Shown here piece after piece: positions 36,358 through 41,705 of a stretch of 64,000 nt of DNA. Position numbers and translations under genes: made by a program. How positions within the stretch are numbered: position 1 is the stretch's first letter; every line of letters begins with the position of its first letter. Location of the stretch: the sequence record NC_041871.1; one strand, given 5' to 3'. This stretch comes from Escherichia phage Murica. The notes beneath the pieces were generated by a model. The model was not told the DNA's origin. It did not search any database and worked only from the letters and a program-made list of their open reading frames with translations.

Positions 36358-36663
36358 ATGGCTAAATCTAAAGTTGAACTGTTCACCTCTCTTCCTTCTG
36401 ACACTGCAGAGCGTGATCGCCTTCGCAAAACAATCGAAGAACTGGTAGAACTCCAACTTCAGATTAAAGATCTGAAAGATGCCATTAAGGATATCATTCT
36501 CGTTGAGAAGCAGGATCACCTGTATTCTCCTAAATTCATCAAATCTCTGGTGGCTACCGAGTTCGATATTCGCTATGAGGCTGAAAAACGTCGCGCTAAA
36601 ATCGAAGAAGAGGTTGAGCACATGTCTGAGGCAGACATTCTGTTCAAACGCTCTGTAGAATAA
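36358..36663 (+). CDS. coiled-coil protein
   Basis: 101 aa, charged heptad-like pattern; strong AAGGAGA RBS and terminator immediately downstream. Confidence 0.5.
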   Translation: MAKSKVELFTSLPSDTAERDRLRKTIEELVELQLQIKDLKDAIKDIILVEKQDHLYSPKFIKSLVATEFDIRYEAEKRRAKIEEEVEHMSEADILFKRSVE

Positions 36664-36718: not shown

Positions 36719-37045
36719 ATGGGTATACCAATCACTGTAAAAGAATTGAATGAGCGTGATGCAGGCGGTCTATGGCCTGCACGAAAAATCCGCTGCGTCT
36801 ATATGAAAGAGAATCTTGAACATCTTGATCAACAGATCAAGGTCGGTGATATTTTTGAGGTCTTCTATTCCAATCGTCGTAACTGGGAAACCATTCAACC
36901 TTCTGGTTTTGTTCTTGCCAAACTTGACACTGGAGAAGTGATTATCCCTGGGTTGGATATTGTCTTCGAAATTATCCAGGAGTGGGATCCGGATAAGATT
37001 AGATACGAAGAGTTATTCGGTAAAGGTATTATCAAACCTGTGTGA
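36719..37045 (+). CDS. hypothetical protein
   Basis: 108-aa ORF. Confidence 0.4.
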   Translation: MGIPITVKELNERDAGGLWPARKIRCVYMKENLEHLDQQIKVGDIFEVFYSNRRNWETIQPSGFVLAKLDTGEVIIPGLDIVFEIIQEWDPDKIRYEELFGKGIIKPV

Positions 37046-37353
37046 GGTGGATTATGTCTACAAAGGCGGCTAAATACTCCTACATGCCATCAACCTCTGC
37101 AGAGGTAGACTTTAGTTTCGATGTGTTTCCACTGTTTGAGGTGGTTCTGGCATACCCAACAATACTATCTACTCCTGAATCACTTGTACCTGTTAAGTTG
37201 CAGAACGCTATGCATTCTATGCACTACAACAATAAATGTAGGCACAGATGGTGTCAGGACGAGGAAAAAGATTTGGATAGTTTGAGGGATTTTGACAGTC
37301 ACCTTTTGACACCTTTCAGCTACTCCAACCTTGATAAGCCCTCATGGGTATAG
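37042..37353 (+). CDS. hypothetical protein
   Basis: 103-aa ORF with overlapping start. Confidence 0.4.
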   Translation: MRWIMSTKAAKYSYMPSTSAEVDFSFDVFPLFEVVLAYPTILSTPESLVPVKLQNAMHSMHYNNKCRHRWCQDEEKDLDSLRDFDSHLLTPFSYSNLDKPSWV

Positions 37354-37377
37354 CAAAATATCAAATTTAAGACACCT

Positions 37378-37405
37378 AGGACGCTCTGTGGCGTCCTTTT
37401 CTTTA
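37378..37405 (+). terminator. intrinsic terminator
   Basis: AGGACGC-tctgtg-GCGTCCT followed by TTTCTTTATCT. Confidence 0.75.
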
Positions 37406-37566
37406 TCTGGTGCACGATTGCATACCTTGGACAGATAATCTCGTTACAGAGCGTTTAAGAGCTTTCTACAAACAAGTCTCTCTTTCGAGCGTAGCGAGAA
37501 CGCACGTCCGTTTTGACCAAAATCACCATACGCTCGGATTTTAACCAAACCCTCGCGGCGTTGCTG

Positions 37567-37595
37567 TTGACACATTACCGCTCCCGTGATAGTAT
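37567..37595 (+). promoter_or_regulatory. sigma70-type promoter TTGACA-17-TAGTAT
   Basis: Consensus -35 with 17-nt spacer upstream of the small ORF at 37616. Confidence 0.55.
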
Positions 37596-37615
37596 CCACA
37601 CACAGTTTGGAGAAT

Positions 37616-37717
37616 ATGGAATACACAATGAGAACATTGTCTGAAGTTTTAGTGGTGATCCTGATGATCATTACTTCCATAGCGGCTGTTGCCGGAATAC
37701 TCACGGGTGGAACATGA
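37616..37717 (+). CDS. small hydrophobic peptide (about 30 aa)
   Basis: Single TM-like segment LVVILMIITSIAAVAGIL; stop overlaps ATG of ORF 37714; start ambiguous (37616 or 37628). Confidence 0.3.
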   Translation: MEYTMRTLSEVLVVILMIITSIAAVAGILTGGT

Positions 37718-37926
37718 TCAACACACATGCACCTGAAGAGACATCCAAAGGAGTGACCATATGTCCCTTGGCTGAGCCAGTTAGAGAGGAAAACTTAGAT
37801 TCTGAGGACTCTTCATCTTCGTCCCAGACAGATCCTGAGGCTGATGACCTGACGTGGGAGGACATCGTAGATATCTGGTTCTCTATTATGCCTGAGCACG
37901 AAGAGTTCAGAGGTGGTAGACTATGA
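37714..37926 (+). CDS. small acidic protein
   Basis: 70 aa, serine/acidic-rich. Confidence 0.4.
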   Translation: MINTHAPEETSKGVTICPLAEPVREENLDSEDSSSSSQTDPEADDLTWEDIVDIWFSIMPEHEEFRGGRL

Positions 37927-38046
37927 AGCACCGAGCCCACACAGGTTCCTCATGCTAAAGCATGGCCTGAAGAGGCAAACGTGTATAATTCCTGTGCATT
38001 GTGACGTATAAAACCCGTTCACACTCTCATTTCCAGAGGAGATTTT

Positions 38047-38262
38047 ATGAAGATAGAAATATTTGGTGGAGCTGACAACACTCGTGGCCTGATTTACCTG
38101 GAATTCGATGAATCATACCTGCCAGAGGTGTTAAATATAGACTCTGTTGCTGAGGCTTTGGGAGTAAACCCTAAAGAACTCCACTCTTGTGCTGAGATCG
38201 ATGGTTGGGAAGAGACCATGAACATTGATTTCAGTGAAGTAGAGGATGAACCGCTGGACTGA
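38047..38262 (+). CDS. small acidic protein, MKIE paralog family (probable)
   Basis: MKIEIFGGADNTRGLIYLEF; last plus-strand gene before the non-coding gap. Confidence 0.45.
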   Translation: MKIEIFGGADNTRGLIYLEFDESYLPEVLNIDSVAEALGVNPKELHSCAEIDGWEETMNIDFSEVEDEPLD

Positions 38263-39739
38263 CACACAATTAGCTGCCCGGCTAAAGTGCTGGAGCACCT
38301 ACAATACATCTTTCAACTAAATTTCCCACCACCACAATCACTTACCTTCCACACATGACTGTTTGCTTGTTTAGTGAGCAGTCATGCCTTGACATTCTTG
38401 CCTATCCTGATAAAATTAAGTTCTTCTCTTTTCTTTTACCGAGTAATTCGGGTTTTCTGTTCTCTTCGGTTTGAAGGGGTATGGAGATACACCTGAGTGA
38501 ACATGGTGAACAACCGAACATTTGGCTATGGCATTAGCATGGCGAAGCGGACGGGTGACGAAAGAGGGGCCGGAGGACACCAGTCACTGCCATATGATAT
38601 ATGGGTGATAACCTGAAGAGTCTGAATAAGTGTTTAAGTACCAGTCAGAGGAAAAGGTGAATGGTAGCCGAAGGGGGAGGGGGGTTTCTTGTATCTTTAA
38701 TTTGTATATTATGTATACACTCGTAAACCAATCTCATCTGAATCTGTTTACCACACAAAGTAGATAGGGACAAATATCACCTATTAAACTTGAATTATTT
38801 ATAGAAAATACCACAACACCACTTAAGTCTTTGATTTTACACACAAATCCTACAGATATTCAACCTCTATATTTAACATATTCATAACATATTCCATACT
38901 CTACCTGTCTGATCAATTTACCCAACCACATCCTCCATATTTTCCCTGTCTGTACCACCCCTGCCCCGCCGGGAGTCCCGTCATATCTGGCTTTCCAGCA
39001 AATATCACACCCACAAATATCATTGCCTGAAGAGGGTTTCATCCCATAGTACATGCCTTACCTGAAGAGCGCTTCATACACCACGTAAATTTTTTAATTT
39101 ACCCCCCCTCCCCGCCGCCGGAGTGGTCGGCTTTTCCCACACAGGCCTGAAGAGTCAGCCAGAAATATCTGAACAGGTCCAGTTATACCACGATTTTGAC
39201 CTGACCGACAGGAGTGCTGCCAGGCGGACGGAATGGGAATACTTCTCATTCTTATAATAATTCTCAAATATCGAGGCAGTGAGGCAAATTAATAGGTGAG
39301 GCCGTTCACACAGTGGCACAACATTTGCAATCTATTTTGTGAGGGTGAATGAGAATACCTATCATTGTGAGAACTGTTATCATTACGGGCAATTTAACAT
39401 AATACCCATTATGCGCACCACTGGCGATCCATACAGGGATTGATAACATGAGTTACAGTTTACGCATATAACAATCATATTTCTTACTATTTGTGTGGGA
39501 TATAGTTAGCAGCCGATAGATTAGATATTGACCTGTGGACTTCCAACCGTCTAGACGTCTAAACGCCCACACAACAAGGATTATACATACATTACTGAAT
39601 GTAAACAGGGCCGCAAAAATGCTACCATACCAGATTGTAAATTTTTCATGCAGCACTTGACAAAGAGGAGAAAAACTTGTCTGACACAATATGACATACT
39701 GGGCACATTAAACACACTTTAGACTTAATTGACATGCCT

Positions 39740-39862
39740 GACTGTTTACGCTGTCACTATTCACGCTATTACTATTCACTCCCTTTACTGTTCACGCTCT
39801 TACTGTTTACATGCTTAATGGTTTACATGACCAATAGTTTACATAGCTAACTATTTACATGG
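39740..39862. repeat. array of eight tandem 15-17-bp iterons
   Basis: Head-to-tail units ending TT(T/C)AC(G/A/T) with 15-16-bp period (e.g. ctgtcactattcacg, ctattactattcact, ctcttactgtttacatg, ccaatagtttacatag). Confidence 0.75.
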
Positions 39863-39871
39863 AAATGATAA

Positions 39872-40153
39872 GCCATGCCATTCGTTTGCATGATAACTAT
39901 TAGCAAGTTAATAATCTTTCGCTGGCTATGCCAGGTGACCTTTGGTCACCCCTTCGGGTGTTTCTATGACATAATATAAAAGCAGGGCAACTATTAGAAG
40001 ATCTATAGTTGCCTTGCTTGTTATGTCATGATTAACTAAATACAAGGCAACTATGATCTGATTAATAGTTTGCAAACAAACTATCACGGGGGGTGATGGT
40101 TACTGCTTTTATATTATGTCGCGACTCCGTCGCGCCATGCCATTCGTTTGCAT
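39872..40153. repeat. 262-bp dyad-rich element bounded by exact 20-bp direct repeats
   Basis: GCCATGCCATTCGTTTGCAT at 39872-39891 and 40134-40153; internal inverted repeats GGTGACC-ttt-GGTCACC, GGCAACTAT..ATAGTTGCC, GACATAATATAAAAGCA / TGCTTTTATATTATGTC. Confidence 0.75.
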
Positions 40154-40765
40154 AGTTGCCTTATTGTTACAGATAAAATAATTGTATTGTTAATTATTTC
40201 TTATCTTTCTCTTAGTCATCTAATGATTCCAGTCAGTATAGTAATGTACAGTAAACATTAGACGACTAAAGATTTATATGCTTATAATAACTTACAGTGA
40301 CAATTTCGGACTGTTTACGAAAAATGTTGACACCTGAGCCGATTTATGTTATGCAGTTTACACGAATAATTATTTTATGCAGGTATTGACTATTCCGTTA
40401 TTCTATGGTCGGAATAAATACTTAGCAGTCTATAGAATGGTGACGCTACGTGAATTCTGGAATTTAGTGGCTATAGTTATACCCGATTTTTCACGTAGAA
40501 CACGCTTTTGTGGTTATGTAAGTGTATGACTTATAAAGATTTTTAGTTGTTGACAAGACACTGAAGATATGCATCAGGTTAAATTTTGTGCAATAGCTGC
40601 ATTACGTGCAATTTTGGAAGGAAAAACGTGTAAAAATGGCCCTGCTACCACACAATGAAAGATTATGCAATAGCTATTTTATATGTATGTTTGTACAGTG
40701 TGTGGGATTGATGGCTAGTCAATTATTCCACTTGCCAGGTGGGGACGTTTGTGGTAGGAGAAATA

Positions 40766-40798
40766 CAGACAAAAAGAAAGGGGCCTTTTAAAGCCCCT
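40766..40798 (-). terminator. intrinsic terminator for minus-strand gene 40817-41236
   Basis: Minus strand: AGGGGC-N8-GCCCCT followed by TTCTTTTTGTC. Confidence 0.7.
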
Positions 40799-40816
40799 GA
40801 TAGTTTAGTTAAGAAA

Positions 40817-41236
40817 TTATAATGATTCGTATATTTCATAGATTCGATTTGCCAGGTCGTTACGGTAGCGGAATTTTTCCTCACGTTTGATCATCAGATC
40901 TTTAAAGCCATATTCTTTAAGCACTTCATTAACTTTATGGCGGCATACCTTCATATTATCCTGTGCGTCACCAATAAACTTGTTGCTATGGTGCATGGCT
41001 TTAATTTCTTCTTCCAGGACCAGGGCAACTATGCGGACCGGATCAAGCTGATAGGCGGTAACATCAATGCGGCATTGTAAACGGCTTTTTACGTCTGCCA
41101 CCGGATATACTGCAACCTCTTCCCCGTCAACATTGACAATAATTAGTTTACCATCGATTTCGAATCCTTTCGCCGCCGGACCGTGACAAAAAGCGTTATC
41201 AAAGCTATATGCCGGATTATTAGATTTAATGTTCAT
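40817..41236 (-). CDS. hypothetical protein
   Basis: 139-aa ORF with promoter upstream and terminator downstream. Confidence 0.5.
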   Translation of the reverse strand: MNIKSNNPAYSFDNAFCHGPAAKGFEIDGKLIIVNVDGEEVAVYPVADVKSRLQCRIDVTAYQLDPVRIVALVLEEEIKAMHHSNKFIGDAQDNMKVCRHKVNEVLKEYGFKDLMIKREEKFRYRNDLANRIYEIYESL

Positions 41237-41285
41237 GGTGTTTTTACCTCTTAGTTAATTTTCTTACAACTTCCCTTCAAAAAAG

Positions 41286-41314
41286 AATATAGCAAAACTG
41301 CCGATCCTTGTCAA
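41286..41314 (-). promoter_or_regulatory. sigma70-type promoter TTGACA-17-TATATT (minus strand)
   Basis: Consensus hexamers upstream of gene 40817-41236. Confidence 0.6.
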
Positions 41315-41381
41315 CCAAGGATAGCATAATTTTTATGTGATCAAGGGGCTTTATTGCCCCCTGATCGTGCAACTTGTTGTA

Positions 41382-41645
41382 TTATTTGTTACTCATCCAG
41401 TTTTCCCAGGCTGCCTGATAATCTGCCTCACTGCGGCGGATCTCTTCTTGCTCTTCAAGTCGGATCTCTTCTTCCAGGTACCCCAAGATATCGGCTTTCT
41501 TGGTCTGGCGTAACATCCAATCATCTTTTTTACGGGTAAAGATCTTATATGCTTTCTCGCAAACCTCTTTTTTGCTACCTTTTTGGACTTCAAGAACTTT
41601 GTAGGCCATGTACTGAACTAGTTTAAGCTGATCAAGACGTTTCAT
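41382..41645 (-). CDS. hypothetical protein
   Basis: 87-aa charged ORF. Confidence 0.4.
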   Translation of the reverse strand: MKRLDQLKLVQYMAYKVLEVQKGSKKEVCEKAYKIFTRKKDDWMLRQTKKADILGYLEEEIRLEEQEEIRRSEADYQAAWENWMSNK

Positions 41646-41705
41646 GATGTTTACCTCTTTGTGTGGTTCTGATTAGTGGGCCTCCCGGCCCGTGTCATTA
41701 TCTTA

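Follow-up and report, generated by a model that had tools for sequence, protein, structure and literature searches.

A one-strand array of CCTGAAG motifs beside the presumed terminal repeat of Escherichia phage Murica and related Vequintavirinae: a candidate DNA maturation or packaging signal

The stretch of DNA analysed here (called the window) covers 64,000 nucleotides of the genome of Escherichia phage Murica (NC_041871.1), and our subject is a group of short repeats in a gap between its genes, where a first-pass annotation had reported five same-strand copies of the 9-mer CCTGAAGAG within 1.2 kb of non-coding DNA. The region is 88–98% identical to ∼120 Vequintavirus records (rV5-like Escherichia coli myophages), and in rV5 the homologous array is located in the 2.6-kb gap that separates two convergent genes, ORF163 and ORF164. 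The rV5 genome paper draws this gap as an unexplained grey 'non-coding' box and does not use the word 'repeat' (PMC3606486). An exact search of both strands of the window found eight copies of CCTGAAGAG, all on the plus strand and none on the minus strand. Six of them, called S1 to S6 here, are clustered in ∼1.4 kb (37732-39154), on the plus strand only: the five reported positions (37966, 38612, 39026, 39061 and 39146) and their orientation are exact, and a sixth copy, at 37732, had been missed. The upstream element claimed for two of the copies is also present, as CCCACACAGG is found 20 nt before the copy at 37966 and abuts the copy at 39146. The copies and this element are located as follows.

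37732..37740, plus strand: S1, a copy of CCTGAAGAG absent from the first-pass list; most relatives have TCTGAAGAG at this site
37936..37945, plus strand: CCCACACAGG, 20 nt upstream of S2
37966..37974, plus strand: S2, between two small open reading frames (ORFs); retained in the divergent contig L242 despite a 46-nt insertion that follows it
38612..38620, plus strand: S3, unchanged in 15 out of 15 relatives
39026..39034, plus strand: S4; the preceding three bases vary in relatives and the motif is constant
39061..39069, plus strand: S5, the partner of S4 in a 20-nt direct repeat
39136..39145, plus strand: CCCACACAGG, abutting S6
39146..39154, plus strand: S6, 69 bp from the terminal-repeat boundary; it reads CCTGAAGAGTCAGCC, with the counterparts CCTGAAGTGTCAGCC in phage KPP-1 and CCTGAAGAGTCAGCC in phage GAP31

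The description of the interval as non-coding is right only in part: it includes a conserved 71-codon ORF (38047-38262), but the remainder is free of conserved ORFs and matches the rV5 'non-coding' box.

By chance, 0.5 copies of CCTGAAGAG are expected (whole window, both strands), and none of 100 dinucleotide-preserving shuffles reached eight copies (the maximum was four), in agreement with the excess that had been claimed. The two copies outside the cluster (14319 and 21820) read in frame as CCT-GAA-GAG (Pro-Glu-Glu) within plus-strand genes. The degenerate form YCTGAAGNG has a density of 3.3 per kb in 37400-39222, 0.11 per kb in 1-37399 and 0 in 39223-64000, so that the array is ∼30-fold denser than the remaining window. 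A similar density throughout the genome and on both strands, which the first-pass annotation had named as the outcome that would speak against an array, is not what we observed: the complete rV5 genome (137,947 bp) has nine copies of CCTGAAGAG, five of them in the homologous 1.2 kb and four within genes, always on the sense strand. Successive copies from S1 to S6 are spaced by 234, 646, 414, 35 and 85 bp. S4 and S5 are part of one 20-nt direct repeat (TTrCCTGAAGAGsGyTTCAT; the two are 35 nt apart), and the flanks of the other copies are unrelated to one another.

The array is adjacent to the likely physical ends of the genome. Terminal repeats of 458 or 459 bp are reported for the genus Vequintavirus (PMC7471380, PMC6563267), e.g. 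458 bp for both EdH4 and HdK5 (PMC6563267). The 459-bp terminal repeat annotated at the end of the Gotham record aligns to 39223-39681 of the window with 95% identity over 459 nt, and several GenBank records start or stop within the gap. For KPP-1, a Mydovirus, a 514-bp direct terminal repeat (DTR; 116,316-116,829) and T7-type packaging have been reported from twofold coverage and PhageTerm (PMC9862379). The KPP-1 repeat is located in the homologous convergent gap, and both of its boundaries align with those inferred for the window: the left boundary is GTGCTA/GACGGACAG in KPP-1 and GTGCTGCCA/GGCGGACGG in the window (the slash marks the boundary), and at the right boundary the two agree within 1-2 bases of the aligned position. 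In KPP-1 and the Seunaviruses, the homologous left boundary motif is GACGGACA. From this homology, we infer that both physical genome ends of this phage lie at 39223-39681. With the DTR at this position, the array would stop 69 bp short of the physical genome end; it makes up the last 1.5 kb of unique DNA ahead of the right-hand repeat copy and, in a concatemer, would be just upstream of the junction. The distance to the left boundary is 1257 bp for S2, 611 bp for S3 and 77-197 bp for S4-S6. The repeat and the elements on its two sides are listed here.

39207..39222, plus strand: module GACAGGAGTGCTGCCA / CAGGAGYGCTGCC, directly before the boundary; one copy in the window and in rV5
39223..39681, no strand assigned: DTR of 459 bp, by homology to Gotham; left boundary GGCGGACGG
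39741..39861, plus strand: iteron-like array of ∼8 units (ACTGTTYACGC / GTTTACATG) with a period of 15-16 nt, starting 60 bp past the repeat

The module GACAGGAGTGCTGCCA/CAGGAGYGCTGCC is present in two to three copies in Gotham (∼2995-3054 of L006), magaca, S127, ECP26, LL12, JEP1 and L242, and this copy-number variation is an insertion/deletion polymorphism at the presumed cut site. The iteron-like array, a candidate replication origin, is the most variable stretch in close relatives (30–50% identity to the window in the alignment).

Within Vequintavirus, each of 14 GenBank relatives has four or five of the five core copies (S2-S6), on the plus strand only. Across these relatives, three out of 630 motif cells (0.5%) differ, as compared with 4.1% for the 10-nt flanks and 6.4% for the surrounding non-coding DNA, and the bases immediately before S4 and S6 vary while the motif itself is constant. 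Two pattern scans of IMG/VR returned almost only chance or coding-repeat matches, and one useful divergent relative, the metagenomic contig L242 (81–87% identical). This contig has kept all five core copies, with a 46-nt insertion behind S2 and a 65-nt replacement between S5 and S6. The insertion (1163-1208 of L242, aligned after 37974) contains the palindrome GGTGACCTAGTCACC and is bordered by AAGAG at either end, as a small inserted element would be.

Similar clusters are found in other genera. A DNA search that started from the KPP-1 gap reached the homologous gaps in three Seunaviruses (PVP-SE1, 4MG and GAP31) and in other Mydoviruses. They all share one layout, in which the last rightward gene is followed by a short stretch of non-coding DNA and then by the boundary motif GACGGACA. 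The stretches ahead of the boundary and their copies of CCTGAAG are given below.

PVP-SE1, 666 nt, plus strand: four copies
4MG, 368 nt, plus strand: two copies
GAP31, 410 nt, plus strand: three copies
KPP-1, 334 nt, plus strand: one copy
Window gap 38263-39222, 960 nt, plus strand: four copies

Together the five stretches have 14 plus-strand copies of CCTGAAG (0.148 are expected from composition) and none on the minus strand, although the 14 copies are not 14 independent events because the genomes are related. Two more Mydoviruses have copies of YCTGAAG: three in K18PH07C1 (a fourth site reads CCTTAAG) and four in KpS8. The two bases behind the core vary (AG, TG, CG, GG or CT), which leaves YCTGAAG as the shared core, with N-G behind it in most cases. 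No plus-strand CCTGAAG was found past the boundary in any of the five genomes (39223-40780 in the window). In Vequintavirus, Seunavirus and Mydovirus alike, a motif cluster thus precedes the homologous GRCGGAC boundary, but the copy numbers, positions and flanks of CCTGAAG differ from genus to genus. For example, a homologous hairpin (GGGTTGAC-loop-GTCAGCCC) has the loop CTGAAGW in KPP-1 and GAP31 and GTAAACT in 4MG and PVP-SE1. Since copies and flanks differ while the cluster recurs, it appears that the cluster is maintained and individual copies turn over, which would be the pattern expected of an array of functional recognition sites; we consider this cross-genus recurrence to be the strongest evidence for such an array.

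The closest known case is that of phage T7, in which arrays of CCTAAAG are located next to the 160-bp terminal repetition (the arrays were reportedly named SRL and SRR by Dunn and Studier in 1983). In the T7 sequence, we counted 11 copies in the first 340 bp of the top strand (three inside the repeat and eight just after it) and none on the other strand, and the 110 bp before the right terminal repeat contain two exact copies plus variants. The likeness is one in kind (a short motif, on one strand, beside a short terminal repeat): both phages have many one-strand copies in non-coding DNA adjoining the DTR, with irregular spacing and variable flanks. The two 7-nt cores are one base apart (CCTAAAG in T7 and CCTGAAG here), a likeness that may be coincidence. 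However, the T7 arrays are found on both sides of the repeat and within it, with spacings of 13-30 bp, whereas in Vequintavirus and Seunavirus the plus-strand copies are found on one side only, with none within or beyond the repeat, and are spread over 1.4 kb in the window. T7 is also a 40-kb podovirus with its own RNA polymerase, taxonomically unrelated to the 137-kb myovirus studied here. Repeated short sites beside the cut also give packaging its polarity in lambda (cosB R1-R3), P1 (the pac hexamers) and SPP1 (the pacL/pacR boxes); these sites are within ∼100-200 bp of the cut, and binding of the small terminase subunit to them has been demonstrated. The present array likewise has several short repeated sites beside a presumed DNA cleavage site, with protein binding being putative, but it is spread over up to 1.26 kb, and the genome would end in direct terminal repeats, unlike the cohesive or headful ends of those phages. 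Our literature searches returned no description of this array, which is apparently an undescribed case of a type that has been known in T7 since the 1980s.

As the array lies beside the terminal repeat, with the same arrangement in related genera, it would probably be a signal for DNA cutting or packaging. Our more specific reading is a tentative one, to which we assign a probability of about 0.4: judging from their position, the CCTGAAG(A)G copies may form an oriented protein-binding array for concatemer maturation or packaging. In replicating DNA, genomes would be joined head to tail via one copy of the 459-bp repeat, with the array on the right-arm side of the junction and S2-S6 between 77 and 1257 bp before the start of the repeat. 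The DNA-maturation machinery would load onto the CCTGAAG sites through a terminase recognition subunit or some accessory protein (most likely through the component by which the packaging machinery recognizes DNA), and the single orientation of the sites would set the side of the cut and the direction of packaging. The structural contexts of the copies are mixed (hairpin loops, stems and unstructured stretches all occur), which argues for recognition of the sequence itself rather than of one RNA fold; this would be most simply achieved on double-stranded DNA, and an RNA-binding protein is also possible. Terminase small-subunit sites and nicking-enzyme sites were among the functions proposed in the first-pass annotation. 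The terminus-related proposal is strongly favoured by position, at the presumed genome terminus, and by comparison, with same-strand CCTGAAG clusters at the homologous position in three Vequintavirinae genera; no terminase small subunit, however, is annotated in the rV5 record.

The missing annotation is one of several points that weigh against a packaging signal. The array is dispersed, with S2 and S3 being 1.26 and 0.61 kb from the boundary, and the terminase recognition sites known to us are closer to the cut (within ∼150 bp for lambda cosB). The distance from S6 to the boundary differs among close relatives because of insertions. In a column permutation test, the motif columns were not significantly less variable than random 9-mers (P ∼0.065), a value that reflects the closeness of the relatives. 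KPP-1, K18PH07C1 and KpS8 have two conserved inverted copies inside the repeat, and strict polarity is therefore not universal. To our knowledge, the function of the T7 arrays was never established either. Finally, PVP-SE1 and PhiTE were called circularly permuted and terminally redundant from older restriction digests (PMC3475682). The reports on genome ends are thus in conflict (coverage-based DTRs for Gotham, EdH4, HdK5 and KPP-1, and digest-based permutation for PVP-SE1 and PhiTE), and PVP-SE1 has the same boundary motif and motif array despite having been reported as permuted.

The gap contains other elements, of which the following bear on alternative explanations of the array.

38047..38262, plus strand: ORF of 71 aa (PHROG 12108), conserved, the sole conserved coding part of the reported interval
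38350..39090, plus strand: conserved non-coding block holding S3, S4 and S5, ∼97–100% identical even in L242
38389..38416, plus strand: strong sigma-70-type promoter-like site (TTGACA, 16 nt, TAAAAT, with TG before; 11 out of 12 matches)
39101..39135, plus strand: C-rich tract, CTCC/GGAG-type hairpin and T run, conserved in kind in Seunavirus and Mydovirus
39314..39329, plus strand: perfect sigma-54-type -24/-12 element (TGGCAC-AACAT-TTGCA), inside the terminal repeat and 168 bp downstream of S6

The block at 38350-39090 is more conserved than the neighbouring ORF and begins at the sigma-70-type promoter (38389-38416); a small terminator-like hairpin (38439-38451) is found 25 nt past this promoter-like site. 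A C-rich tract with a small hairpin precedes the last motif copies in three genera (39101-39135 in the window, ∼1865-1895 of L263 for PVP-SE1 and ∼3870-3895 of L141 for KPP-1), and its stem is TTCCCC/GGGGAA in KPP-1 as against CCCTCC/GGAGGG, a difference that looks compensatory. The sigma-54-type element points toward the iteron-like array.

The copies might instead be sites for a transcription regulator that controls promoters of the junction region, which we regard as unlikely. In one version they would act as enhancer-like upstream activator sites of the sigma-54-type promoter that lies in the terminal repeat. TGGCAC-N5-TTGCA has its sole match in the rV5 genome there, the element is invariant in 15 Vequintaviruses while its flanks vary, and the Seunaviruses PVP-SE1, 4MG and GAP31 have TGGCACG-ATGA-TTGCA 84 nt inside the boundary (91 nt in the window); L242 has TGGCAT-GGCTT-TTGCA. 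The virulent phage YuA is reported to have a sigma-54-like promoter (PMC10914365), so such an element in a virulent phage is not unprecedented. The three Mydoviruses, however, keep the motif cluster and lack the element, no integration host factor (IHF) consensus was found between the array and the element, and none of the rV5 ATPases tested passed the Sigma54_activat threshold that would mark an enhancer-binding protein (gp004 gave generic P-loop matches below threshold). In another version the copies would be activator sites in the -35 region of sigma-70 promoters of small ORFs; in most relatives, S2 and S4 have CATAAT or TATAAT 9-10 nt downstream. But a -10-like hexamer at this fixed distance is seen for only two of the six copies, and in L242 the 46-nt insertion parts S2 from its hexamer; fixed promoter geometry was rejected, as only S2 and S4 have it. 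Against both versions, the motif is non-palindromic, unlike typical activator sites, we know of no E. coli activator site that it resembles, and no array precedes the repeat at the mature left end. A joint role, in which the array and the sigma-54-type promoter together form a transcription-coupled maturation signal, appears very unlikely. In that case, a protein bound to the CCTGAAG copies would act on a poised host sigma-54 RNA polymerase, activating it or placing it at the concatemer junction, and the complex or its transcript would mark the place of the terminase cut or of repeat duplication, as a host-polymerase counterpart of the pause of T7 RNA polymerase at the T7 concatemer junction.

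Another explanation is that the motif acts in RNA, with CCUGAAG marking where an RNA-binding protein or nuclease recognizes or processes the transcript, or else serving for pairing; the plus strand of this region would then form the untranslated end of the rightward transcription unit and also of transcripts begun at the 37567 and 38389 promoters. Every copy is on the strand transcribed into the region, the block with S3-S5 is better conserved than the adjacent coding DNA, several copies are in the loops of small hairpins (e.g. GGGTTGAC-CTGAAGW-GTCAGCCC in KPP-1 and GAP31), and related phages have functional non-coding RNA, such as pseudo-ToxI in PhiTE (PMC3475682). We nevertheless find this unlikely: Rfam has no gathering-score match in the window and, at E up to 10, nothing relevant in 37000-41500, the predicted folds are not more stable than those of shuffles (z = -1.5 for 38423-38705 and +0.3 for 38423-39145), the structural context is inconsistent (the same hairpin carries the loop CGTAAAC in 4MG and PVP-SE1), a terminator-like hairpin with a T run lies ahead of S6, and the inverted copies conserved in the Mydovirus repeats would be antisense. 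A role in replication, either as loading or priming sites for helicase-primase or as auxiliary origin sites beside the iteron-like array, is quite unlikely. It would agree with the presence of that array 60 bp past the repeat, with the GTC behind several copies (CCTGAAGAGTC, CCTGAAGTGTC), and with the annotation in rV5 of a primase/helicase of the T7 general type (GTC is the core of T7-type primase recognition sites). But GTC is seen on only some copies, the spacing is irregular, the copies are 0.6-1.9 kb from the iteron-like array, across the terminal repeat, and the iteron region varies freely in close relatives while the motif does not. Iterons (∼17-22 bp, regularly spaced and clustered) resemble the array in that a short motif is repeated directly, in a single orientation, in non-coding DNA; here, however, the core is 7-9 bp and the spacings range from 35 to 646 bp. 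Classical iteron-type sites, which had also been proposed, therefore fit poorly, and the separate regular array at 39741-39861 is the better iteron candidate. For the sites of a partition protein, another earlier suggestion, nothing was found in support, and the phage is lytic. The cluster might also have no function and be a by-product of local duplications or of sequence composition. S4 and S5 do share one 20-nt local duplication, and genes carry CCTGAAG on their sense strand fairly often (0.3 per kb). Yet the remaining copies have unrelated flanks, the motif is far less variable than its flanks, and three genera have such a cluster on one strand only, at non-homologous positions and with ∼100 times as many copies as expected, so that this explanation is already disfavoured and highly improbable.

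Some further candidates were considered and rejected. Chi-like protection from RecBCD was discarded, as E. coli Chi (GCTGGTGG) differs from the motif in sequence and was not found in the array region. CUGAAGA fits the CUGANGA core of the hammerhead ribozyme, but no stem II/GAAA partner could be seen by eye and there was no Rfam match. A large structured non-coding RNA was rejected since folding energies were not better than those of shuffles. Remnants of translation starts were considered because the motif is purine-rich and often follows a CACACA leader; no suitably spaced start codons were found, except for a 7-codon frame after S2.

CACACA(A) is itself over-represented in the window (32 plus-strand and 35 minus-strand copies). 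It is very often found a few bases 5' of the ribosome-binding sites of genes, sometimes right behind a hairpin (e.g. at 41665, 42008, 47162 and 49718 on the minus strand). In 37.5-39.3 kb there are nine copies on the plus strand and none on the minus strand (plus-strand examples at 37597-39568), several of them ahead of CCTGAAG, and the same is seen in other genera. A second same-strand motif, CAAATATCA, is found on the plus strand at 38771, 38999 and 39014 and once elsewhere in the window (on the minus strand); the homologous positions in Mydovirus and Seunavirus read AAAATATC(A). ORFs near the array are assigned by Pfam and PHROGs to families of unknown function, plus a 'transcriptional regulator' family for an ORF of 101 aa (36358-36663). 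This regulator did not serve as a handle on distant relatives, as its homolog is non-syntenic in PVP-SE1, KB57 and CR3. Past the terminal repeat, the window has a perfect 20-nt direct repeat (GCCATGCCATTCGTTTGCAT; 39872-39891 and 40134-40153), a perfect 18-nt inverted repeat (39968-39985 and 40103-40120, 117 nt apart) and several palindromic GGCAACTAT units (39980-40170). Among the related records, 19 that are labelled 'Campylobacter phage' (MG0656xx, host C. jejuni) share 90–95% identity with E. coli Vequintaviruses in this region. The host label is probably wrong, and at least one of these records is marked UNVERIFIED.

Vequintavirinae are common phages of E. coli, Salmonella and Klebsiella and are widely proposed for therapy and biocontrol. 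The gap that has been unexplained since the rV5 genome paper is where we would place their physical ends, with an oriented and conserved motif array on one side, and the array and the ends together make a testable candidate for the packaging or maturation signal of Vequintavirinae. If the candidate is right, it would be useful for phage engineering and for the design of packageable vectors, would help to open assembled genomes at their physical ends, and would help to explain how short direct terminal repeats are formed outside the T7 group. It also revives the old question of what role the CCTAAAG arrays play in T7.

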